The position numbers were made by a program, and so were the translations under genes. A stretch of DNA of 64,000 nucleotides from Raja brachyura (taxonomy: Eukaryota), in NCBI GenBank assembly GCA_963514005.1, contig OY740782.1:86118001-86182000 (forward strand), read 5' to 3'. Each line of letters opens with the position of its first letter. Positions within the stretch are counted from its first letter, which is position 1. Shown here piece after piece: positions 16,719 through 38,445 of this stretch. The notes below the pieces were generated by a model. It made no database searches. It had not been told where the DNA came from and saw only the letters and a list, made by a program, of their open reading frames with translations.

Positions 16719-19165
16719 TCAGATTCAGATTCAGATTCAATTTTAATTGTCATTGTCAGTGTACAGTACAGAGACAACGAAATGCATTTAGCATCTCCCT
16801 GGAAGAGCGACACAGCAAATTATTTGAATAAATAACAATAAGTGTCCGGGGGGGGGGGGGGGGTGATTGGCAGTCACCGAGGTACGTTGTTGAGTAGCGT
16901 GACAGCCGCCGGAAAGAAGCTGTTCCTGGACCTGCTGGTTCGGCAACGGAGAGACCTGTAGCGCCTCCCAGATGGTAGGAGGGTAAACAGTCCATGGTTG
17001 GGGTGAGAGAGGTCCTTGGCGATGCTGAGCGCCCTCCGCAGACAACGCTTGCTTTGGACAGACTCAATGGAGGGGAGCGAGGAACCGGTGATGCGTTGGG
17101 CAATTTTCACCACCCTCTGCAATGCCTTCCGGTCGGAGACAGAGCAGTTGCCATACCAAACTGTGATGCAGTTGGTAAGGATGCTCCCGATGGTGCAGCG
17201 GTAGAAGTTCACCAGGATCTGAGGAGACAGATGGACCTTCTTCAGTCTCCTCAGGAAGAAGAGACGCTGGTGAGCCTTCTTGATTAGAGTTGAGGTATTG
17301 TGGGTCCAAGAGAGGTCGTCGGAGAGGTTGACTCCCAAGAACCTGAAGCTAGAAACACGTTCCACCTCCGTACCGTTAATGTGGATGGGGGTGTGCGTGC
17401 CGCCCCTGGACTTCCTGAAGTCTACAATGAGCTCCTTGGTCTTCTTGGAGTTAAGGGCCAGGTTGTTGTCAGCGCACCATGCTGCTAAGTGCTGGACCTC
17501 CTCCCTGTAGGCCGACTCATCGTTGTTGCTGATGAGGCCAATCACCGTTGTATCATCTGCATACTTGATGATGGTGTTAGTACCATGTACAGGTGTGCAG
17601 TCATAGGTGAAGAGGGAGTAGAGGAGGGGGCTCAGCACACAGCCCTGTGGAACGCCGGTGTTCAGGGTGAGGGTTGAAGAGGTGTGCTTGTCTAACCTAA
17701 CAGACTGGGGTCTGTTGGTTAGAAAGTCCAGTATCCAGTTGCAGAGGGAAGGAGCGATGCACAGATTACCGAGTTTGGCGATCAATTTTGATGGTATAAT
17801 GGTGTTGAATGCTGAGCTGTAATCGATGAACAGCATTCTTACGTAAGTGTCTCTGTTGTCGAGGTGGGAGAGGGCGGAGTGAAGTGCCGTTGAGATGGCA
17901 TCCTACGTACTCCTGTTCTTGCGGTAGGCAAACTGATAGGGATCCAGTGTGGGGGGTAGGCAGCTTTTGAGGTGTGCCAGGACCAGCCTCTCGAAGCACT
18001 TGGTGATGATGGGGGTAAGTGCAACTGCGCGGAAGTCGTTGAGGCTTGCCGCAGTGGAGTGTTTTGGCACTGGCACGATGGAGGTGGTTTTAAGGCACGT
18101 GGGGACAACTGCCAGGGCAAGTGACAGGTTGAAGATATCAGTCCAGACGTCTGCCAGCTGCGCCGCACAGACCCTGAGCACGCGCCCGGGGATGCCGTCA
18201 GGGCCAGCAGCTTTACGTGCATTAGTCCTACTCAGTGCCACGTATACGTCATAGGGGGTGAGTGTGAGGGGTTGGAGATCGGCAGGTAGCACAGCCTTGA
18301 TGGCTGTCTCTAGATTGTCCCTGTCGAAGCGGCCATAGAAGTGATTGAGCTCCTCAAGGAAGGAGGCGTCGCTGGATGTGGGGGTGGTGTTAGCGGGTCT
18401 GTAGTCCGTGATGGCCTGGATGCCTTGCCACATGCGTCGGGGGTCGGAGTTGTTGTTGAAGTGCTCCTCAATCCTGAGCTTATGGCAGTGCTTGGCCTTC
18501 TTGATGCCCCTCTTCAGGTTAGCCCTGGCTGAACTGTAGGCTCGAGCATCGCCTGACCTGAAAGCGGTGTCCCGTGCTTTCAGCAGTAGCCTGACCTCGC
18601 TGTTCATCCATGGCTTCTGATTCGGGAATATGGTCACCTGTTTGAGGGAGGTGACACTATTGATGGTGGAGTTTATAAAGTCCAGAACAGAGGATGTGTA
18701 GGAGTCAATGTCCATGTGGGAGTCAAGGGTGGCCTGGGCTGCAAACGCCTTCCAGTCAGTGTTTCCAAAACACTGCTGAAGTGTGAAGTCCGCTTCCTCT
18801 GACCAGACTTTAACTGTCCTCACAGTTGGTTTAACCCGTCTGATGAGTGGGGAGTACTTAGGGAGCAGGAACAATGAGATGTGATCAGACTGACCAAGGT
18901 GGGGGAGGGGGATGGCTTTGTAAGCTTCAGCCACGTTGGTGTAGACTTTGTCCAGTGTCTTGTCTACTCTAGTGGGGAAGGAGACATGCTGGTGGAATTT
19001 GGGGAGTACAGTCTTCAGGTTAGAGTTATTGAAGTCACCCGCAACAATGAAGGCTGCCTCGGGGTTGTGTGTCTGTTGATTGCTAATGGCAGTATGCAGC
19101 TCTTTCATTGCAAGCTTGGCATTAGCATCAGGAGGGATATAGGCTGCAGTCACAACTGGCCTTGG
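16719..19165 (-). mobile_element. Rex1/Babar-clade LINE, 5'-truncated; APE-RT ORF broken by one TAG at 17903-17905
   Basis: [49 protein letters not shown] and C-terminal LPSGRRYRS...NSFFP; (CTGAAT)n tail at 16719-16740; ORFs 17903-19222 and 16874-17836 share a frame. Confidence 0.92.
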
Positions 19166-19935
19166 CCTTGCTCCTAGCCCCTCTGCACTGACAATATATC
19201 TGACCCACACATAAAGCCCCATATCTGACCCCCTGGACTTAACCTATTACATTCAAGTCCACAGGTGCTTATCTAATGTGGTAATCTTTTAAGGGGCACT
19301 TCATGGACCAAATTTTGTTTAACAATACATCCATTGGCTTCCCCGTTATCTAACATGCTAGTTACTTTGTTAAAGAAGTCATCAATTGGTTGAACACAAT
19401 TTCTCATCCATAAAATTATACTCATTCAGGTGTATGTATTCTGTTACCATTTCCTTTTTTTCCCCTAACAAACAGTCTTGAAGTCATTTTCACCCCCAAT
19501 ATTTCCAGTATTTTGCTGGCTTCCCCTCAGCTGGGACTTTTCCAAAATGCAAAGTCCAATAACTATATATTTAAGCAATAATATTCTATTTAATGTGATC
19601 TCGAGAGTACATAATATTTTCTGTGGCATTCATAACACAACAATGATAAAAAGATCTTTATTTCAATTGCACCTTTCAACATGCATATGTTATTATATTA
19701 CAGTTAATATGTACCAAGGGCAAATTTTTGTTACAGTGCTCCCCATTCCCAATTACTTTTACATTGAAGTGATTGAAATTCAAGTGGTTTAAATGGCATC
19801 AGAAAAGTAAAACCTCTGGATTGGATGATATTCATTCATTGGTTGTTTGGAGTCAGTACCAGCACAATTACTAAATTAAACTTTGAATCTTCAGATGTCC
19901 TGGTTCAAGCTAAAACTAAAGTCAAATAATAACCT

Positions 19936-20084
19936 TGTTGGGTATGTGATATGATTAGCATATGTGATGTTTTGTGCAAGTACGCATGTGCAAGGGAGAC
20001 TGAAGGTGGCGTCCTGGAATAAAGAAGCTTGTTAGTTTACTCCCGGTTATTTTAAGTCTGTTCCAAGCACCCAAAGACACAACG
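19936..20084 (+). repeat. 5' LTR (about 149 bp)
   Basis: TGTTGGGTATGTGATATGATTAGCA...AATAAA...CACAACG; direct repeat of 24340-24501. Confidence 0.88.
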
Positions 20085-20086
20085 AT

Positions 20087-20098
20087 TGGCGACAAGGA
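20087..20098 (+). promoter_or_regulatory. Primer-binding site, tRNA-Ser(GCU)-like
   Basis: TGGCGACAAGGA (second copy TGGCGACGAGGA at 24504) is complementary to the ...TCCTCGTCGCCA 3' end of vertebrate tRNA-Ser(GCU); lies 2 nt after the LTR. Confidence 0.75.
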
Positions 20099-21652
20099 TA
20101 AAAGAACAGAAAAGAAAAGAACAAGGACAGCCAAGAAAAACAAAAACAAGTTAAAATAGAGGTTGTATTTGGAAACAAAGTGGAACAGCACCAAGCAAAA
20201 AGATTTGCCGCCAAATGGTTTTGAATTGGCGCCAAAGGGAATAAAAGGGTTGGAACGGGAAGCAAGAGTGCGGGGAAGCAAGAGCGCAAGGAAGACAAGC
20301 GGGGCAGTAAGGGTCACCGAACGTAGATTAATGCTAGGAGTGACGGTGTCAGCTTACCTGGAACATTTTCCAGGGCTGTGCAGCCCACAGCCAGGCCCAA
20401 GCAGCAGCCACAGATGTCGGGTGAGGGCCTAGTACCGTGTACGCCACGGGCAGGTCCGGAGAAGCCACTGACGAAAGAGGACCATGTAGCCCACGGCCAG
20501 CCCCAGTAACAGCCACAGACGTCGGGTGAGGGCTTAGTACCGTGTAAGCCACAGACAGGTCCGGAGATGCCACTGACAGAAGCCGAGTCTTCAGCCCGCT
20601 CGGGAGCAGAGTCAGCCCAGTCGGGGGAGAAAGCAGAGAAAGCCCGGTTGGGAGCAGAGTCAGCCCGACCGTGAGCAGAAAAGAGGGTCCGGCCGCGCAA
20701 GGGAAGCGGACCGGCCACGTGGGAAAGCCAACCGCGAGAGAGAAGCGGAACTGGCCGAGTGAGAGAGGCGACCGCGAGAGAAGAGTGGACCAGGCCCGAC
20801 GAGAGAAGCGGACAAAAGCCGAGAAGCCGAGAGCCGAGAAACCACGGTCGCAAGAGACGGCTGAGAGTGGGGAAAGCCCAGATGTGAGAGGAAGTCCAGC
20901 CCCGACTGAAGAGTGGGTCCGCACAAGAGAAGTGGGACACAGCGCTTAGCCAGCCCCGACAGCGGGGCACAGTCCCGACACGAGAAAAAGCCAGCGACGA
21001 GCCGAGCAGCGGGTCTAGCAGCAGACAGGTGGGCCGTGGAGCCCGTGATGAGCCGAGCAGCGGCGCCCAGCAGAGTGAGGCCGTGCTGTGGAACCTCGAC
21101 GGGTGGTGCAGATGGGGAGCCAGAGACTTACCTTCCGCAGCGCGTCCATGGGAGACAACAGGCGAGTCAGCAGAACAGCAGGAGTCGACTTGGCAGGCGG
21201 AAACAGCAACGGATGAGCCAGCGGTAGTAGAGGAGATCCGGAGTGGCTAGCAGCAACAGTGTCCTTGGGAGAAGCTCTGGAGAATCCAAGAGGTCGAGGG
21301 TGCACCGGAGGCCGTAGGCCGACAAGCTGGACCGGTGAAATCCTTCACAATAAAAGCACTGTTTGAATGTTATGCATTATTCATTATTCCTTCACAGTAA
21401 AAGCAGGACTGTTTGGATGTAATGCATTGGTCACTGTTATTAATAGTGAATTTGTGCATAGCAGGAATATGGTTTAAAATGTTCTAGTTGGCTGTTAACC
21501 TGAAATGTTCGTTATTTGTATAAATCTATTATTATAAGATTAATTAATAGTCAGTGGGTTGGATAATCTCTTAGAATGTAAAAGGATTAAGTCCAGGGCA
21601 GAAAACACTGTGAGAGAACAGAATATAGTGCACCTGAATAGCAACAGGGAGC

Positions 21653-22510
21653 ATGGCTATTCAAATGGTAGGAAAGTTGCCCCAGTTAGATTCTGGGTGT
21701 AATTTTGAGAAATGGACTGAAGTCTTGAAGGCTTCGTTCATTTCCAATGATATCACTGCAAAGGAGAAGAATAGAGCATGGTTCATATTAGGCTTAGGAA
21801 GAGAGGGTTATCACACCTTACATATGTTACTGCAGCCAGCAAAGCCCACGGGTATGTTTTACGAGGAGTGTAAGGAGGCATTAATGGCTCATTTCTCGCC
21901 AAAACCTCCAAGTGCATCCAGAGGCAAAGAGCCTGAACGAAAGAAGGCAGAGAGTCCCTCAAAGGACAAAAGTCAAGGGCAAAGTGACAAAAGTCAAGTG
22001 CCAAGTGACGAAGGCCAAGTGCAAAAGGCCAATGGTCAAAGGGAAAGGGAAAAAAGTCAAATGCAAAGGGAAATTGCCATCCAGAGGGCAACCCTAACTA
22101 TTCAAGCTGCATTCAAGGGTATGAAGGTACGGAGAGAGATCTGGAACACACAGAAGGCAGCAACGGTAATACAAGCAACATTTAGAATGCACAGAGTAAA
22201 CCGTCCATACAGGGCCATGAGATTGGCAGCTATAATAGTACAAACCCATTACAGGGCACACCTTCAAATGGAAAGTGATTGCAAAACTTACAGGAAGGTA
22301 CGCAGCAGCGCTGTGCTGCTTCAGGCTGCCTACCGAGGAATGGTTATTCGAAAGCAATTGCGGTGCATGCACAAATCTGCCAAGGACATACAGACTTATT
22401 ATCAGATGCATAAACAGCGTCAGTATTTCAAGAAACTACGCTGGTCTGCCATTGCGGTACAGCAACGATACCGAGCTTGCCAGATAAGAGATGTCCAGGT
22501 GCAATTATAA
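21653..22510 (+). CDS. Chimeric ORF: Gypsy Gag N-terminal domain + linker + ASPM-derived IQ repeats (285 aa)
   Basis: aa 1-86 (...FEKWTEVLKASFISNDI...GYHTLHMLLQPAKP...YEECKEALMAHFSPKP) resemble a Gypsy Gag N-terminus; C-terminal half has tandem IQ motifs IQAAFKG, IQATFRM, VQTHYRA, LQAAYRG, IQTYYQM, VQQRYRA. Confidence 0.8.
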   Translation: MAIQMVGKLPQLDSGCNFEKWTEVLKASFISNDITAKEKNRAWFILGLGREGYHTLHMLLQPAKPTGMFYEECKEALMAHFSPKPPSASRGKEPERKKAESPSKDKSQGQSDKSQVPSDEGQVQKANGQREREKSQMQREIAIQRATLTIQAAFKGMKVRREIWNTQKAATVIQATFRMHRVNRPYRAMRLAAIIVQTHYRAHLQMESDCKTYRKVRSSAVLLQAAYRGMVIRKQLRCMHKSAKDIQTYYQMHKQRQYFKKLRWSAIAVQQRYRACQIRDVQVQL

Positions 22511-23806
22511 TAGTTTGAGAAAAGCAGTGGTTTGTATTCAGGCCTTCTACCATGGGATTAAAGCCAGAGAATTGGTTGAGAAAATCAAGGCAGCACGCCA
22601 TATTAAGTCATTCATAATGATGTGCATTACAAGAAAACATTTCTTGATGCAAAAGGCGGCTGTAGTCACTCTGCAAACTGCATACCGTGGTTACCGATCA
22701 AGGGTACGCTACATAGCTATGTGACAAGCAGTCATTTTGATCCAGAGATGGTACAAAGCATTCAAAATAGGGCATTCCCAGTTTGTACAATATCAGTCAA
22801 TTAGGGATGCAAGTATTACCATTCAGGCTGCCTACAAGAGTATGGTGGTTAGGCAATGGGTTAAGCACAAGAGAGCTACTATAAAAGTGTAGTCAGTACT
22901 CCGTATGAGTTGGTATAGGAAAGACTTAAGAAAACAAATAGATGCACAACAGAAAAGGCTTAAACATAGACATAGAAAATAGGTACAGGAGTAGGCCCTT
23001 TGGTCCTTCGAGCCTGCAACGCCATTCAAAATGATCATGGCTGATCGTCCAACTTGGTATCCTGTACCTGCCTTCTCTCCATACCCCCTGATCCCTTTAG
23101 CCACAAGAGCTACATCTAACTCCCTCTTAAATATAGCCAATGAACTGGCCTCAACTACCTTCTGTGGTAGAGAATTCCACAGATTCACCACTCTCTGTGT
23201 GAAAAATGTTTTTCTCATCTCGGTCCTGAAAGATTTCCCCCTTATCCTTAAACTATGACCCCTTGTCCTGGACTTCCCCAACATCAGGAACAATCTTCCT
23301 GCATCTAGCCTGTCCAACCCCTTAAGAATTTTGTAAGTTTCCATAAGATCTCCCCTCAATCTTCTAAATTCTAGCGAGTACAAGCCGAGTCTATCCAGTC
23401 TTTCTTCATATGAAAGTCCTAACATCCCAGGAATTAATCTGGTGAACCTTCTCTGTACTCCCTCTATGGCAAGAATCCAACTATTACCATTCAGGCTGCC
23501 TACAAGAGTATGATGGTTAGGCAGTGGGTTAAGCAAAAGAGAGCTACTGTCAGTCAGTAGTCCGTATGAGTTGGTATAGGAAAGACTTAAGAAGACAAAT
23601 AGATGCACAACGGAAAACCGCTTAAACGATACAAAAGGCTTAAATGATATAGGAAAGACTGCCTCAAACTGAAATATATAGCAATTGTAGTGCAGTCTCA
23701 CTATCTTGCTCATGAAGCTAGAACACTGTACAGAACACAAATCAAAGCCACTGTTATATTGCAAAGACAATATAGATCCTACTTCTTGATGAAAAACCAG
23801 AAAGGT
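22075..23806 (+). pseudogene. ASPM: Captured ASPM IQ-repeat fragment (frameshift at about 22505, stops, CR1 insertion, internal duplication)
   Basis: More than a dozen closely spaced IQxxYR-type motifs with the alternating pattern of the ASPM IQ region (IQAFYHG, LQTAYRG, IQRWYKA, IQAAYKS, VQSHYLA, LQRQYRS). Confidence 0.78.
22966..23478 (-). mobile_element. Young CR1 3' fragment inserted in the captured ASPM/TLK2 region
   Basis: ILAIEGVQRRFTRLIPGM...GYGEKAGTGY plus a catagacatagaaa tail; near-identical to 5243-5760. Confidence 0.93.
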
Positions 23807-24175
23807 GACTTAAGAAGACAAATAGATGAACAACAGAAAAGGCTTAAACGATACAAAGAACGGTTAAATAAATGTGTGACAATGAGTAAAAAGCTGCTAA
23901 TAGAAAAGTCTAAAGAAGAGAGGCTTGTCGGTCAAGACAAAAGTATGCAGGACCGATTGCGATTAGGACACTTCACTAGAGTCCAGCATGGAGCCTCCTT
24001 CACTGAGCAATGGACAATTGGTTATGTATTGCAGAATCCCATTAAACAGCAAGAGCAGATAAATACGCAGCAAATGGAAATTGAACAACGGAAGAAGCTG
24101 CTAGAAAACGAAAACTTGCAGCCATGGGTCAGATCCCACCTACAAAGAGGAAAACAAAGCAAATACATGAACCAG
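23807..24175 (+). pseudogene. TLK2: Captured, intron-free Tousled-like kinase (TLK2-like) coiled-coil fragment
   Basis: [38 protein letters not shown]...[27 protein letters not shown]..., then (frameshifted) [12 protein letters not shown], matching the recalled TLK2 [11 protein letters not shown]...[24 protein letters not shown]...KRKPPAMGQAPP. Confidence 0.88.
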
Positions 24176-24339
24176 AAAATTAAATGCAGAATATCAGGAA
24201 CAGGAAGAAATTGTGTAAAAGGGGAGGAATGCGGTGTATGTAATAGAAATGGTATTACCTGCCTCCAAGTTAAAGGGGGAGGAGTGTTACATATGTAATA
24301 GAAATGGTGCTACCTGCCTCCAAGTTAAAGGGGGAAGAT

Positions 24340-24501
24340 TGTTCGGTATGTGATATGATTAGCATATGTGATGTCTTGTGCAAGTATGCATGCATGCTCG
24401 GGGGAAGCTGAAGGTGGCATCCTGGAATAAAGAAGCTTGTTGGTTTACTCCCAGGTCTGAGTGTTCTTTTAAGTCTGTTCCAAGCACCCAAAAACACAAC
24501 A
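24340..24501 (+). repeat. 3' LTR (about 162 bp) preceded by a polypurine tract
   Basis: AAAGGGGGAAGA-T-|TGTTCGGTATGTGATATGATTAGCA...CACAACA. Confidence 0.88.
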
Positions 24502-25169
24502 ATTGGCGACGAGGATAAAAGAACAGAAAAGCACCCAAATACACAACAGACCTCCCCACACATTCCCCTGCAAGTATCTCTGTCACTCCTTTAAAATATG
24601 CCCCTTCTTTGAACAAGCTCTTAAGCATCTGAATCAGTTTCCATCTGATTACACTCCTTGAGAAAGTTCATCTACATGTTCAATTAATAAAACAATGAGA
24701 TTGGGGACATTTCTATCCAATCTGACAAAGGAATTTGGGGGGGGGGGCAGTTAGATATAGTCGTTGAGGTAAACAAACACAATAGTGCTACCTTCCTAAT
24801 AATTAACTGAAGGGAATAATGGGTTATCGGGGCTGTATGTTGCTTCAAAATCAAGTGGTTGAGTATTATTGCCATTCAAGATTAAGTGGGACCATTGGGT
24901 CCCAGCTTCACACAGGGGTGCTGATTTGCCAAACGCAATATTCCACCTCTCCACCAATTCTAATATTGTGGCCAGTGGGGGGGGGGGGGCATTCTGGAGT
25001 GCTAGTATGGGTGTTGTGGGCTGAAGGGACTGGTTTCCAGAGGGCTAGTATGGACATTGTGGGCCGAATGGATTCTTGGCCTGGCGGCTCAGTCACTCAA
25101 GCCTGGTGTGCTGGCAGCTCACTCACGGCAGTTGAGCTGGTAGTTGACTCACGGCTATTCCTTGAAATT

Positions 25170-25408
25170 CCTTGCAAGGCCACCAAATTCAAGTGCAGTT
25201 TCATACCATTTCGAGCAGGGTGCAAAGCCCCCAAATTCATGCAGTTTCCTACCATTTCAAGCAGGGTGCAAGGCCACCAAACTCAAGTGCAGTTTCATAC
25301 CATTTCAAGCAGGGTGCAATGCCATCAAATTCAGGTGCAGTTTCATACCATTTCAAGCAGTCTGCAAGGCCACCAAATTCAAATGCAGTTTCATACCATT
25401 TCAAGCAG
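25170..25408. repeat. 48-bp minisatellite, about 5 copies
   Basis: tgcaaggccaccaaattcaagtgcagtttcataccatttcaagcaggg units. Confidence 0.9.
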
Positions 25409-25482
25409 AGACTGAGCCACGCGCACACTTCTGGGTTTTATAGTCCCTCCCCCTCCCACTGGAAGGGGCATGATCTTTGTGG

Positions 25483-25802
25483 CACTTTTGCATTTTCAAA
25501 CCAACCCACTTTTGCATTTTCAAACCAACTCACTTTTGCATTTTCAAACCAACCCACTATTGCATTTTCAAACCAACCCACTTTTGCATTTTCAAACCAA
25601 ACCACTTTTGCATTTTCAAACCAAACCACGTTTGCATTTTCAAACCAAACCACTTTTGCATTTTCAAACCCAACCACTTTTGCATTTTCAAACCAAACCA
25701 CTTTTGCATTTTCAAACTAAACCACTTTGGCATTTTCAAACCAAACCACTTTTGCATTTTCAAACCAAACCACTCTTGCATTTTCAAACCACATTTTCAA
25801 AC
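25483..25802. repeat. 24-bp minisatellite, about 13 copies
   Basis: cacttttgcattttcaaaccaa(a/c)c units. Confidence 0.95.
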
Positions 25803-32445: not shown

Positions 32446-33552
32446 GGGGACAAAAAATTTCATTTCTCAGATTTGGTGGTTCCTTGAACCAGCTGTCACA
32501 ATGGAATGGAAATAAATAAATTGTCAGTACTTGTTTACAGAAAAGGTCAGGCAGCATCTCTGAAGAATATGGACAGGTTGCATTTTGATTCTTCTTTATT
32601 GAATGTAGGTAGTGGAGAGAAAGCTGGAAAATGAGATAGGGGGCAGACAAAGCCTAGCATGTGACGGGTGGGTTGAGGTAAGAGGGATTTTGATTTGTAG
32701 ATAAATGGACAAAGGCTAGAGAGAGAAAAAAGGTGTAAGGTAAGGAGTGAAGAGAATGAAATGTGAAGTCAGAGGAAGGGATATATGAGGAAGAGGGCGG
32801 GAGAAGGGGCAGGATAGTTGGGGAAATGGGTGCATATCCAGGCAGGACGTAGGAAACAGAAAGGGGAAAGAAGTATCCATTTTTCCCACTGTCCCACTCT
32901 AATGAAATAAGGTTGGAAGATATGAATATATTCACAAAAAATGTCAGTAGAGAGTAATACATTCACAAACATTCAATAGCAGTGAAAGACACAAAGCGTT
33001 AATCTCAGCAGTTTGAAAGGCATGCGAGGTGCCCTGGATGGGAAAGGATTGGACAATGGGGGATAGGATAGAATAGGCAGCATTCCTGGAGAACACGAAT
33101 AGGTAACATTTCGGGTCGGGGCCCTTCTTCAGACTCAGACTTCTGAAGAAGAATCCGACCTGAAATGTCACCTATCGATGTTTTCCAGGGATGCTGCCTG
33201 ACCCGCTGAGACACTCCAGCATATTGTGTCTTTCCTGGTAAACCAGCATCTGCAGTTCCTTGTTCCTTCAATAGTAGTGACTGCTTTGACAGCTGGTGAG
33301 CTTAGGGTGGAGCAGTACCAGCTGTGTTCTGTGTGAGCAGCGGATTGCCTTGCTGAAGCATCTTCTGGAGTGCATCCACCCTGCTGAATTGCCCAGTATC
33401 CAGCATTTGGAGCAAGCAACCACGATGACCCAGGGCAGGGTCAGGGCAACAGATGACCTGCCTTGATGTAAAAAGTACAATTGTATTTTTTTTTTAAATG
33501 ACAAAAAATAACCTGCAGAAATTGTAATTTAATTCAAGGTGAAGAAACAAAG

Positions 33553-36500
33553 ATGAGCGAATCCTGTGATCTACCAGATAATATGACTGAGTGGACCAAA
33601 GAGCACGTAAAATCCTGGGTGATTGATCAACTGACACTTGATCAGAAATATGGAGATATACTGTACAATGAAGATGTCAGCGGAGTGGTGTTGATGGAGA
33701 TAACAAAAGTAGACATAAATGAAATGGGCATAAAGGCTGGACCAGCCTCCATGATGATACGTAAACGTGATGAATTCATCAAACGGTCAAAGAAAGCGAC
33801 AAAGTCAACGACTATTGAAAGTCTCCTTCCTACAGGCGCAGATGGTTCTGCTTGCAAGACACCTGAGGTTGGTGATGCAGAGGACCAGAACAATAAATCA
33901 GTTACCTCTAATTTAGAAATGAATCTCTCACAAAAACATCACAAGATGAAGAGTAGACCTGGATCCAGCTCGTCAAAATCAGAGAAAAGTAAGATCAAAG
34001 GGCAAGAATGTACACAAGGGACGATTGATGCTGTTGCAATGACACAGTCTGACGCTGAATCAGGAGCCAGAACATGTAAATTGCAATCAAAAGAAAACAT
34101 CTCAAAACCACAGTGTGAACCATATCCATTTGACCAACGTCACATAGGTTCAAGGTATATACAAAACCATATCCTTCCTCCTGAAACCGGGCCCTCCAAT
34201 CTAATAGACCCAGTGCATGAGTTTAAGCTTTTTAATTTGCCCGAGAATGTAACAAGTGTAGAGGTGAAGGAAGATATGATGAAGAAGTTTAGCAATGAGG
34301 TTTTTAGATTCTCAGCTGCATGTATGAATAGCAGAACAAATGGGACCATCCATTTTGGCGTAGGAGACACCAAAAGTGGATACGGACATGGTGAGATTAT
34401 TGGTGTATCTGTGGAAAGCACAGAAAAATATGTTGATTGCCTTTCTGACAGTTTTGTAGTTTACTTCGATCAGAAGGATGTTGCAGATGCAAAAAATTGC
34501 ATTCGACCACCCAGATTTGTGGAAGTTTTGAATCCAGATCAAACTTTGTTAGGAAGGTTTGTAATTGAAGTTGACATTGTACCAAGCTCCTGCATTTGTG
34601 AGTCTACGTTTTATTATATTCACATGTTGAATAAAACTGACAAAAAATGGATGAGGAGTAAGGAGAAACATTTTTTCATACGTGATGGAAGCAGCTCCAG
34701 AGATATACTGGGAAATAAAAATATCACAGAGAGAGACGCAGAGCACAAAAAAATTCTCATTGAGACATCGATAGACTTGGTAAAGAGACGAATAATTGCT
34801 GAAGAGAAACCACAAAAGCCAACAAAGAAACAAGAAGGCTACAAGTTGACTAGAATGATTACAGGTGGATCAGACATGCTCGATTCATCCTATTACCAAT
34901 GGTACATATTGGTAACAAACAAATCATTGCAGTATCAAACTCAGCATTTTGAGTTTCTAAATGAAATTAATTGGTTTTGTGTTTTGGAATATGATCCTGA
35001 TTCTGTAACCAGAGGTACGTGTCATTCTTATCGTAAAGTAAGAATTGCGAATCTTCACTTCCCTCGTCATTTTCAAGATATTGAAGCTTCAATGAGTGAA
35101 AACATTGAAAAACTAAAATTGTACAAGCAAACGAGCTGGATATTTTGTAATGGAAGATCAGACTTTGAAGATCAGGCATTCAAGCCTCTGCCGCCCAAAC
35201 AGTGGTATAAAGAACAAGCTGCAGACGTCAGGAAACTGGTTTCATTTCTGTGCCGACCAGATATCATGCCAAAGGGGAAATTTCTGGTAGTATTTTTGCT
35301 TTTATCTAAAGTAGAAGATCAAAGAGATCCTTTCCATGAAACTTTCTGTTCATTTTACCAAGAACTGAAAGGGGCAGAAGACATAATATGCATCTGTGAA
35401 AGTGAGCAGATATTCTTGCGCTGGAAGGACCTTATGCAGTGCACATGTGATTCACAGGAAGTTACAAATAGATGTGTTTCTGCCTTAAGCATTAAAGAAG
35501 TCAATGATACAGTTCTGAAATTAAAATCAGTCACTCGGACCACAAGGCGATTCTTACCCTCAGCATCTTCAGGGTCTATCATTCTTCAACAGAAAGATGA
35601 GGAACTGTTGACTGCACTGGAAGTCCTGTGTGAAAATGAATGCGAGGGCACAGATATAGAAACCAATCAAAATCGGTTTAAGGAATTTCAAAAATCCATG
35701 GAAGAACAATTTTACAGAGGTGGGAAAGCATCGTGGTGGAATTTTTACTTTTCTACAAAAGTACCGTTTATCAAACGAGACAGTTACGACCCTCTTGTTG
35801 AATTAATTAATGCAACATCATCCTCTGAAAAATGCGTGAAGATTATCAGTTTGTTTCATCATCCAGGCTGTGGTGGGACAACTTTGGCCATGCACGTTTT
35901 GTGGGATTCAAGAAAAAAGTTTAGATGTGCTGTACTTAGGAACAGTAAAGAAGACTTTATAGAAATTGGAAGACAAGTTATTGATCTGGTTACAAATGGT
36001 GCTTCCTGTAACTCTGATTACTTACCTGTATTACTTTTGGTAGATGACTTCGAAGAATATGAAAATGTGCAGGTGTTGCAGAACTCAATTCAAATTGCTG
36101 TTGCAGAGAAAGGTCTACGGATTGAGTGCCCATTGGTAATTATTTTAAACTGCATGCGATCACAGGATCCAGCAAAAAGCTCAAAAATGAATCCGTTGGA
36201 GAGTATTGCTCTAAAACATAAGTTGACTGTTGCAGAGCAGCGATTATTTGAGGTAAAACTTGAGGAAATTGAAAAGCAACATACAAAACCTGAAGATTTC
36301 TACTCGTTCATGATCATGAAGAGTAATTTTGACGAAAAGTACATTGAAAATGTAGTCCATAACATTTTGAAAGACTTAGATATTGCAAGCAAACAAGCAC
36401 AGCTGATCTCATTTTTGGCTTTGTTAAACTCACATGTTAAAGATTCTTCAATATCAGTTTCAAAATGTGAAGAATTCTTGGAATTTGGACAAGTAAAGAA

Positions 36501-38445
36501 TACATTTTGGGGTCCTGAAAAGTTTGAAGATGCGATAGGCATTTACTTTACCCTACTAATTCACACGGAAGTGGAAGAGTATGGAAGATACCAGGGAATT
36601 CGGATCATCCACCCACTGATTGCAAATCGCTGCTTGGAAGAATTGAGAAGTGCTTACAATCTTCCCAAGAGTAAGATCACCACTATGTTGCTAAATACAA
36701 ATATCTTTCTCCAACGTGGAATTGGAAAAGAGAAACTCCAACAAGACACATACAGTATGTTGCTCACCAGACAGCGAAAAGAACATGGAGATGAAGCAGA
36801 TACTCTGTTCTCTCCTTTAATTGAAGCAATACAGAAGGAGGAAGGAAGTGATCAAGTCATAAATGTTTTGACTGAAGCATCAAACAAGTTTGACCAAAAT
36901 CCCTTCATTTCACAGGCCTTGGCAAGACACTTATATCTGATTAAAAAGGATTTTGACTCAGCACTGGAATGGGCTTTAAAGGCCAAGGGTAAGGCAAAGG
37001 ACAATTCATTTATAAGAGACACACTGGGCCAAGTTTTTAAAAGCAAGTTAAAATACAGGATGGAATCGGTTGAAGCTGACAAGCAAACTGTGGTGACTCC
37101 TAATCAGCTGAGAGAGTTCCTGGACCTTGCGCAATCTGCTTCAGAAGCTTTCAGAGAATCACAGCAACTGACAGCAATGAAGGAGGATAGAGCTAACTGG
37201 CAGGAACGGAGGAGCAGATTAAAATCTGATGTTTACAATACTTTAGGTTATTTAGGAGAGATCGAAGTTGGTCTGTACGTTATAGACATTATCAGAATGA
37301 TCCCATTCTTCAGTGGGAACGATAAAATAAATAAATTGCAATTAATGTGTTTCCTCTCGGGGAACATGAATCTTCAGCACATTGAAAAGGAAAACGAAGT
37401 TGATGAAGAGTTATGTTCAATGATTGCAGAATATAACCGATACCTGATAAATATTCAGATATCTATGAAAATGGCTTTTGACTTTTTCGAAGATTATTTT
37501 GTCTATTTTAAAACGAAGAACATTGAGAGAGAAGCAGCTGAATTTAGGATTCGCAAAAAAGTTTCAGATTGTTTTCATAAATACACTGAAGTATTTTATT
37601 TATCACAGTTGGAAAACATCTCAGCAAGGAAGTGCAATCCCAAACTCAGTCTACCACTGGAGCTGGAAGATCACAAGAAGTTCTTAGAGCTCCACAAAGC
37701 AGACCGCTTTGCCGGTTTGCTTGAGTTCCTAAGGAATAATCATGACAGAGGGGATACAATGGAAGAAATTGTTAGGAAGTACAAATTCATTCTCCAGAAT
37801 TCAGCAAAGAAAAGATTATCAAAAGAGAAACAGAACTTCATCTTGGCCAACATTGTGCTTAACTGTGTTAAACCAAACTCCAAGAAAATTGAAACTTATG
37901 ATAAACTTAAAGAACTTTTGAAGGAAGTTCTGCAAGATGTGGGGTTTGATTGTGGTCACGTTGAACCATATTTCTTGGGTTCCTTATTATTTTGGCCAAC
38001 AAACCAAAAAGAAACTGATGAAGATTACCGATTTCTTCTGAAATGCATCACAGCAATCAAGCTGTCATTTAGAGGGCGCTATGCACGAATGAGTCATTCC
38101 AAACATCCTGTTGCACATTTCTACCTCTGCAAAAGAGGAGGGTTGAAGAGATTTGCTCACAAAGCAGAAATTGATCAATTTTTCGGCAAGGTGCGACACC
38201 TCAATTCCTTATGGCAATCTGGAGAGATCTGGAAAGAAAATGAGGTCAAAACGCTTCTCCTTGGCATGAATGGTAGAACAGGCGAGGATAACAAGGTGCA
38301 TATTGAGTTTGGCAATATCAAAATTCCTGTGAGACCTGTACATTTGGGCAAGCTCAGAAGTGGTCTAAGCATTGAGAATGTATCCTTTTACTTGGGATTC
38401 TCGATGGATGGACCTATAGCATATGACATTGAGACGGCAAATTAA
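33553..38445 (+). CDS. SAMD9L: Sterile alpha motif domain-containing protein 9 / 9-like (SAM - AlbA_2 nuclease - SIR2-like - STAND NTPase - TPR - OB), 1630 aa, single coding exon
   Basis: N-terminal SAM ([11 protein letters not shown]...EDVSGVVL); [16 protein letters not shown] and [22 protein letters not shown] (AlbA); [16 protein letters not shown] (Walker A); LLLVDDFE (Walker B); C-terminal [17 protein letters not shown]. SAMD9 versus SAMD9L orthology cannot be resolved because that duplication is mammalian. Confidence 0.95.
   Translation: [1630 protein letters not shown]

Follow-up and report, generated by a model that had tools for sequence, protein, structure and literature searches.

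A pol-less LTR retrotransposon family in the skate Raja brachyura joins gag in frame to pieces of ASPM and TLK2 mRNA

Acutely transforming retroviruses depend on helpers and carry in-frame fusions of gag to host sequence derived from spliced RNA. Among long terminal repeat (LTR) elements the capture of several genes is also known, fish included (PMC5131818; for this and the other papers cited, statements cover the excerpts drawn on here), and the retrocopies of Tan et al. 2016 in zebrafish, chicken and mouse are partial mRNAs that replace internal open reading frames between LTRs, can combine several parent genes at one locus, show microsimilarity where the template was switched, are often in frame and can be re-copied (PMC5131818). 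Maize Bs1 likewise contains pieces of several unrelated host mRNAs inside an LTR element, from three parent genes, with switch points common to all of its 1-5 copies (PMC5131818). Non-autonomous elements that keep gag are known in plants, wheat RLG_Quinta (PMC11302176) and TR-GAG (PMC8704663) being pol-less, with LTR ends and a primer-binding site (PBS) in common with a partner and a gag-first reading frame, to which RLG_Quinta adds a domain of unknown function after gag. Described here is a 4.6-kb LTR element in a stretch of 64,000 nucleotides (nt) of the skate Raja brachyura (contig OY740782.1, positions 86,118,001 to 86,182,000; "the window"), which is one dead member of a high-copy family in which gag is joined to pieces of two host cell-division genes, ASPM and TLK2. 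In the account that we hold to be probable, the family is pol-less and Ty3/Gypsy-derived, its in-frame gag/ASPM/TLK2 chain arose by template switching, its copies were made in trans, and its frame was kept open for translation.

The cases of Tan et al. occupy single or few loci, in contrast to the more than 200 candidate sites, the subfamilies, the stepwise history and the probable frame filter of the skate family (PMC5131818), and set against Bs1 the skate family belongs to a vertebrate genome and has reached a far higher copy number, with weak constraint on its amino acids (PMC5131818). The gag of RLG_Quinta and TR-GAG is described as intact, whereas here the C-terminal half of the capsid is deleted (~340 nt of gag missing), most copies are without zinc knuckles (these occur in 9 of 68 loci) and two host mRNAs have been added. 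Helper dependence and an in-frame spliced gag-host fusion recall the acutely transforming retroviruses, unlike which the skate family has no env in its parent, moves by germline retrotransposition, holds no catalytic domain and shows no clear protein constraint. The parallel with these viruses drawn in an earlier sequence-only reading of the window holds for the mechanism of capture and fails on env, on the kinase domain, which is absent, and on constraint, which is weak; an oncogene-like role is unsupported. In the literature searched, with subscription journals, Repbase and Dfam outside its scope, there is no description of this family, its copy number or a frame kept without constraint on the protein, and the main text of the 2026 Vertebrate Genomes Project retrocopy preprints holds neither "TLK2" nor "ASPM", though their supplements may list such retrocopies. 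Whereas host genes captured by LTR elements are usually regarded as one-off retrocopies, in this vertebrate a chimera of two genes has become a successful mobile family.

The window copy has paired TG...CA LTRs (93% alike), a PBS, a polypurine tract (PPT) and a target duplication, as expected of a Ty3/Gypsy LTR retrotransposon, and the two short LTRs, PBS, PPT and imperfect duplication AACCT/GACCT that the sequence-only reading had named are all present. Its PBS matches the 3' end of tRNA-Ser(GCT), the 18-letter pattern being found at 24 places, with a tRNA-Ser(gct) called by ARAGORN at all three that were checked. Contigs from four public runs join the flanks directly and skip 4618-4619 nt, that is the element plus its 5-bp duplication, with the limit that the window flank is itself repeated and these contigs may be other copies of that repeat. 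As that reading had noted, gag continues in frame into the IQ motifs, with no stop after the ATG at 21653 (a 290-codon stop-free frame; Pfam IQ E 6e-13), and a Pfam scan of 8 frames found no protease, reverse transcriptase, RNase H or integrase in the window copy. The proposed span of 19936-24548 stands for the element as a whole, although the true 3' LTR ends at 24501 and a second PBS, a leader and an LTR-end piece follow it; similarly the TLK-like coil reaches the PPT in this copy as claimed, but other copies carry ~110 nt more TLK2 and 250-400 nt of parent 3' untranslated region (UTR). The ASPM piece is divided by a long interspersed nuclear element (LINE) fragment at 22962-23476. The copy is disabled besides: its frame shifts near 22505 and meets stops near 22722 and 22890, and the TLK2 end and 3' UTR are gone. 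Its subfamily has lost the zinc knuckles. The LINE fragment, which we take to be CR1-type, is bordered by a ~155-nt direct duplication (22807-22966 / 23475-23628) that far exceeds the usual length of a LINE target duplication.

Host ASPM, located via its ASH domain, maps to contig C10, and the two host TLK genes that were found map to C34 (TLK2) and C7 (TLK1); the window belongs to none of these contigs but to C2. The captured IQ piece corresponds to the final repeat unit in the giant exon of host ASPM (87.9% over 876 nt, with the next 165 nt at 88.5%), so bearing out the ASPM identity first suggested; this exon (C10:10603230-10609226, a 1999-codon frame) carries four near-identical ~657-nt IQ repeat units. 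The TLK piece, in which there is no kinase domain, matches human TLK2 (PDB 5o0y, E 9e-43) and follows consecutive C34 exons at 86-97% with the introns gone, as against only 76-77% for the C7 gene, on which ground TLK1 is rejected as donor. The C34 gene is itself taken as TLK2 because it is the closer match to TLK2-type sequences. Five TLK2 exons are fused without their introns of 5.1, 2.1, 1.1 and 1.3 kb, all five host exons having AG/GT borders, and in the window copy the junctions fall at 23908/9, 24045/6 and, for the third, near 24185, which is the crossing of exon borders expected of a spliced source. In L108, a basal copy with the longest insert, the giant ASPM exon is spliced to the next exon and is followed by eight TLK2 exons, and because these junctions are kept both pieces derive from mRNA; the ASPM exon junction also rejects a DNA-level capture of that gene. 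The captured host parts are partial and intron-less, as are LTR-mediated retrocopies.

The autonomous partner that had been anticipated is present in the genome and agrees with the family in LTR, PBS and PPT. The search for it used 20 loci picked by their gag start, and most of twelve of these (L073-L084) are gag-pol elements that share this start with the family at 72-80% of nt; in L074 and L078 no pol was seen. Where present, the LTR (67-80%), PBS, 3' UTR (up to 87%, and 92% for L108) and PPT are shared as well. Pfam protease, RVT_1, RNaseH and rve matches occur in L073, L080 and L081 and Retrotrans_gag in L079, translations of L083 and L080 give the pol order protease, reverse transcriptase, RNase H, integrase, and among solved structures the reverse transcriptase is nearest to Ty3, the best PDB matches including Ty3 Gag-Pol (E 1e-46). 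No env follows the integrase in L080 or L083, where a short 3' UTR and the LTR come next, and all the autonomous relatives examined contain stops or frameshifts. An Atlas search returned solely gag-type neighbours (DUF7041, Retrotrans_gag, Ty3_capsid), and a fold prediction of the parent gag, made from a 6-row alignment, has a predicted local distance difference test score of 38.8; the reading of the capsid in two halves rests on Pfam spans and the alignment. Short LTRs, a tRNA-Ser or -Leu PBS and mostly 5-bp target duplications are features of the Mag clade (PMC3286476), and the family has short LTRs, a serine primer and 5-bp duplications, so that the parent fits a Mag-like Ty3/Gypsy element, the clade name being given on these features. 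It is likely that the family was copied in trans by this autonomous parent, and such a partner would have supplied capsid, reverse transcriptase and integrase.

A search with the gag/ASPM junction scored 40 of 245 candidates, of which the 39 besides the window match at 84-93%, and one with the ASPM/TLK2 junction scored 40 of 226, with those besides the window at 91-95%. Dozens of sites are confirmed and hundreds are probable, and the 226-245 candidates per search suggest a family of a few hundred copies, although candidate sites are not copy numbers. The 68 loci analysed, the window included, were taken from the top search matches and are not a random sample; 67 hold ASPM and 62 hold TLK2. The expectation of further copies with distinct target duplications held good, many independent insertions being recorded among the 26 two-LTR copies by 5-bp duplications that are exact in 12 and have one mismatch in 5 more (17/26, against 11/130 controls), a count in which the unusual 47 additional nt at the window copy's own end led the script to score it as lacking a duplication. 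Secondary retroposition is seen in the many copies with common switch points. The sampled copies are judged to be old, since the two LTRs of a copy agree at 88-98% (median 95%) and the median terminal branch is 0.045. LTR length (~150, 210 or 380 nt in L022, L024, L032, L034, L038 and L051) is set by which tandem purine tract primed the plus strand, and the longer LTRs in such copies fit their target duplications. At L091 (C1:42.70-42.72 Mb) three family copies stand in tandem with a period of ~6.45 kb, and three copies, L026, L052 and L085, have a 3' LTR region that points the opposite way to the body.

Beyond this genome, the ASPM/TLK2 junction is bridged by contigs of five other organisms (A, C, D, F and G in our lettering, E being borderline) and occurs in a Leucoraja erinacea RefSeq model, XP_055497199.1, the best of 232 matches. 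This little skate entry, named "TLK2-like, partial", is a copy of the element's junction, and such copies can inflate the counts of ASPM and TLK2 genes in skates. Two public runs guessed to be RNA cover the stretch, but host ASPM/TLK2 transcripts and carry-over of DNA confound them and their coverage is indistinguishable from that of DNA.

The chimera was likely assembled by template switching of the reverse transcriptase, microsimilarity at switch points being a mark of this in LTR-mediated retrocopies (Tan et al. 2016, PMC5131818). Read by eye and with no simulation of chance, the similarity is ~7 nt at gag/ASPM, 4 nt at ASPM/TLK2 and ~12 of 14 nt at the return to the parent, which falls at the last codons of pol. 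The second capsid half is gone in all the chimeric copies aligned to the parent, whereas the zinc knuckles are retained in loci that are all near the base of the tree, the switch to ASPM following directly after them. In L108 TLK2 is out of frame with ASPM; in the other copies ~500 nt are missing between two TGTG matches and the two are in frame in 28 of 31, which is a founder-type frame of the Gag-IQ-coiled-coil kind that the sequence-only reading had thought possible for the ancestor. The genome thus preserves the parent, the long spliced form, the knuckle-bearing form and the late subfamilies as intermediates. On this evidence the enzyme would have jumped from gag, after the knuckles, to ASPM mRNA, on to TLK2 mRNA and back to the parent at the last pol codons; a ~500-nt deletion at the TGTG match would then have put ASPM in frame with TLK2 and that form would have amplified, and later subfamilies would have lost the knuckles, gained the 21-nt linker and a 72-nt in-frame duplication and taken frameshifts in the TLK2 tail that compensate one another. 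The loci gave no evidence of an ancestor with ASPM alone or TLK2 alone, those missing one piece looking truncated or interrupted, and of six candidates for a second long-form copy all six proved to be L108 and host exons.

To gauge selection on the reading frame and on the protein, substitutions relative to the host gene were classed by the number of copies that carry them, CpG sites excluded, family-internal changes being those in at least five copies with the host letter still in at least three, and rare ones those in one or two copies. Stops in the fused frame are made by none of 102 family-internal changes but by 67 of 1124 rare ones (Fisher p=0.005), and the same family-internal changes read in the other two frames make stops in 6/96 and 3/99, similar to the rare changes. 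In gag and ASPM the large indels that copies have in common (3 nt, 21-nt linker steps, 72 nt) preserve the frame. Shared frameshifts are numerous in the TLK2 tail, and their commonest sets sum to -30 (8 copies), -3 (7), +3 (4) and -24 (3), with 29 of 47 copies net in frame; the frame that enters the tail stays open for a median of 59.5 codons against 8 in the other frames, and in 27 copies some 650 codons lie between the ATG and the common stop. The amino acids tell a different story, the ratio of non-synonymous to synonymous change (omega) being 0.73-0.79 for shared changes against 0.91-0.94 for rare ones (p=0.23 for the difference in counts), ~70% of shared changes altering the amino acid, and core residues of the IQ motifs taking 5 of 94 shared amino-acid changes against 74 of 730 rare ones (p=0.19). 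Of four tests for purifying selection on amino acids only the 5' part of TLK2 (48 copies, p=0.016) and one pooled threshold (p=0.049) reached significance, and because these are one small class and one pooled value purifying selection is not accepted. The lack of shared stops, the cancelling frameshifts and the weak amino-acid constraint therefore make it likely that an open frame was kept and not the function of ASPM or TLK2, the data pointing to selection on the open frame over the protein.

As to quite why a frame should be kept without its protein, we lean towards the source copies having needed a long open frame. They would be filtered for a frame of ~650 codons reaching near the 3' UTR, which would spare the RNA from premature-stop decay, may tie it co-translationally to assembly sites via the N-terminal half of Gag, or both, and ASPM and TLK2 would serve not as working host proteins but as filler with an open frame, drawn from mRNAs abundant in the germline and tolerated. 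An RNA in which an early stop leaves 1.5-2 kb untranslated would be prone to decay. Ty1 and Ty3 use a single RNA pool for translation and for packaging, and their Gag keeps that RNA stable and localises it (PMC4974528). Several observations pull the other way. Yeast mini-Ty elements move in trans without coding sequence (PMC4974528), and translation is for this reason not a general need for copying; the copies described here offer a natural test of whether a non-autonomous LTR RNA must be translated to be copied. Frequency classes are proxies for internal branches, and with an internal tree length of 0.28 against 2.88 terminal the selection test rests on ~100 changes. The shared class does contain one stop, in gag; two ASPM frameshifts occur in 3 copies each, with carriers scattered on the tree; out-of-frame sets of -25 (4 copies) and a lone -1 (3 copies) occur in the TLK2 tail; a CpG-codon stop near the TLK2 end is carried by 25 of 47 copies and is removed by the CpG filter; and the frame runs on from gag into ASPM, across a repeat-rich linker, in just 23 of 43 copies. 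The long out-of-frame basal form is known from a single copy (L108), the microhomology was judged by eye, and no listed run containing the element is recorded as RNA.

A benefit to element or host from the fusion protein as such is a reading we regard as improbable, though it is not without attractions. The N-terminal half of Gag could join partner capsids, and calmodulin binding by the IQ motifs together with the coiled coils could serve oligomerisation, germ-cell localisation or interference with the parent; the frame is kept, with the gag ATG at its start in 53 of 58 aligned copies, all shared classes of ASPM and the TLK2 5' part have an omega below 1 (0.59-0.87), shared amino-acid changes strike the IQ core half as often as rare ones, and it is the in-frame form that amplified, the longer one being known from a single copy. 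Substitution is also tolerated by IQ arrays and coiled coils. None of these shifts is clearly significant (p=0.19 for the IQ core, 0.05-0.23 for non-synonymous against synonymous change), and the preponderance of amino-acid-altering shared changes, the long stretches of TLK2 tail read in a shifted frame in major subfamilies, the loss of the capsid C-terminal half from every aligned copy and of the knuckles from most of them, and the want of an open full-length copy among the 39 first checked all argue against a working protein. It is correspondingly doubtful that a novel protein made of the Gag N-terminal half, the calmodulin-binding IQ motifs of the spindle-pole protein ASPM and the dimerising coils of TLK2 carried the family through the germlines of skates, perhaps by delivering its RNA or partner capsids to structures of dividing germ cells; if true, it would be a retrotransposon counterpart of gag-onc transduction, successful at genome scale.

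The host sequence might instead be neutral stuffer, cis signals alone having moved the element and the open frame being left over from an in-frame capture and quick bursts from a few masters in which stops had scarcely had time to accumulate. The star-like tree with short internal branches would suit this, as would the 14 of 17 young Drosophila cases in which capture was in frame (PMC5131818) and the lack of any need for coding sequence in mini-Ty elements (PMC4974528), but the other two frames acquire stops from shared changes at the neutral rate and the coding frame acquires none, independent frameshift sets in separate subfamilies cancel to multiples of three, and the large shared indels of gag and ASPM (3 nt, 21-nt steps, 72 nt) are in frame, which together leave this explanation unlikely. 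An assembly chimera, or real exons of local ASPM and TLK genes, has next to no probability left and is refuted by the separate contigs of host genes and window (C10, C34 and C7 against C2) and by the repeated occurrence of the junctions, which are present at dozens of loci, in contigs from five other organisms and in the Leucoraja erinacea model. Retention of an open frame for translation in a family copied in trans is thus the reading preferred here. The features of the window copy are collected in Table 1; the number of linker units varies among copies, in frame-preserving steps.

Table 1. Features of the element in the window, with positions counted from the first letter of the window.
Feature	Position	Strand	Evidence or remark
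5' target-site duplication AACCT	19931..19935	.	sequence; partner GACCT at 24549-24553; empty-site joints
5' LTR, 149 nt, begins TG	19936..20084	+	67-80% to LTRs of autonomous relatives
Primer-binding site, tRNA-Ser(GCT)	20087..20099	+	13 nt in window copy, 18 nt in one subfamily
Long leader, differs among copies, containing short internal repeats	20100..21652	+	
gag N-terminal ~85 codons (first capsid half) and spacer preceding zinc knuckles	21653..21965	+	~340-nt deletion between
21-nt tandem linker	21960..22071	+	resembles ASPM sequence just upstream of captured piece
ASPM IQ-repeat piece, part 1 (last repeat unit of giant exon)	22054..22927	+	87.9% over 876 nt
Later-inserted LINE 3' fragment	22962..23476	-	splits ASPM piece; not at this place in other copies
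ASPM piece, part 2, up to ASPM/TLK2 junction	23648..23812	+	88.5% over 165 nt
Spliced TLK2 coiled-coil piece, without kinase domain	23805..24211	+	4 host exons in window copy, 5 in most copies
Three tandem polypurine tracts, 55 nt apart (24217, 24272, 24327)	24217..24339	+	
3' LTR, 162 nt, TG...CA	24340..24501	+	
Aberrant end: second PBS, 15 nt of leader, 20-nt LTR-end copy, closing CA	24502..24548	+	

Elsewhere in the window, a tyrosine-recombinase frame (Pfam Phage_integrase) at 413-1324 on the plus strand is presumably from a DIRS-type retrotransposon, and a LINE with RVT_1 and ALKBH8_N matches at 16877-19243 on the minus strand lies ~700 nt from the 5' end of the element. Just 3' of the element, at 25173-25791, a 48-nt unit is repeated in an array of 5 copies and a 24-nt unit in one of 13. 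A single open frame of 1647 codons at 33502-38442 on the plus strand, with the element ~9 kb upstream, has a weak Schlafen/AlbA_2 match below the cut-off (E 1.5e-4) and is assumed by us to be a SAMD9/SAMD9L-type gene.

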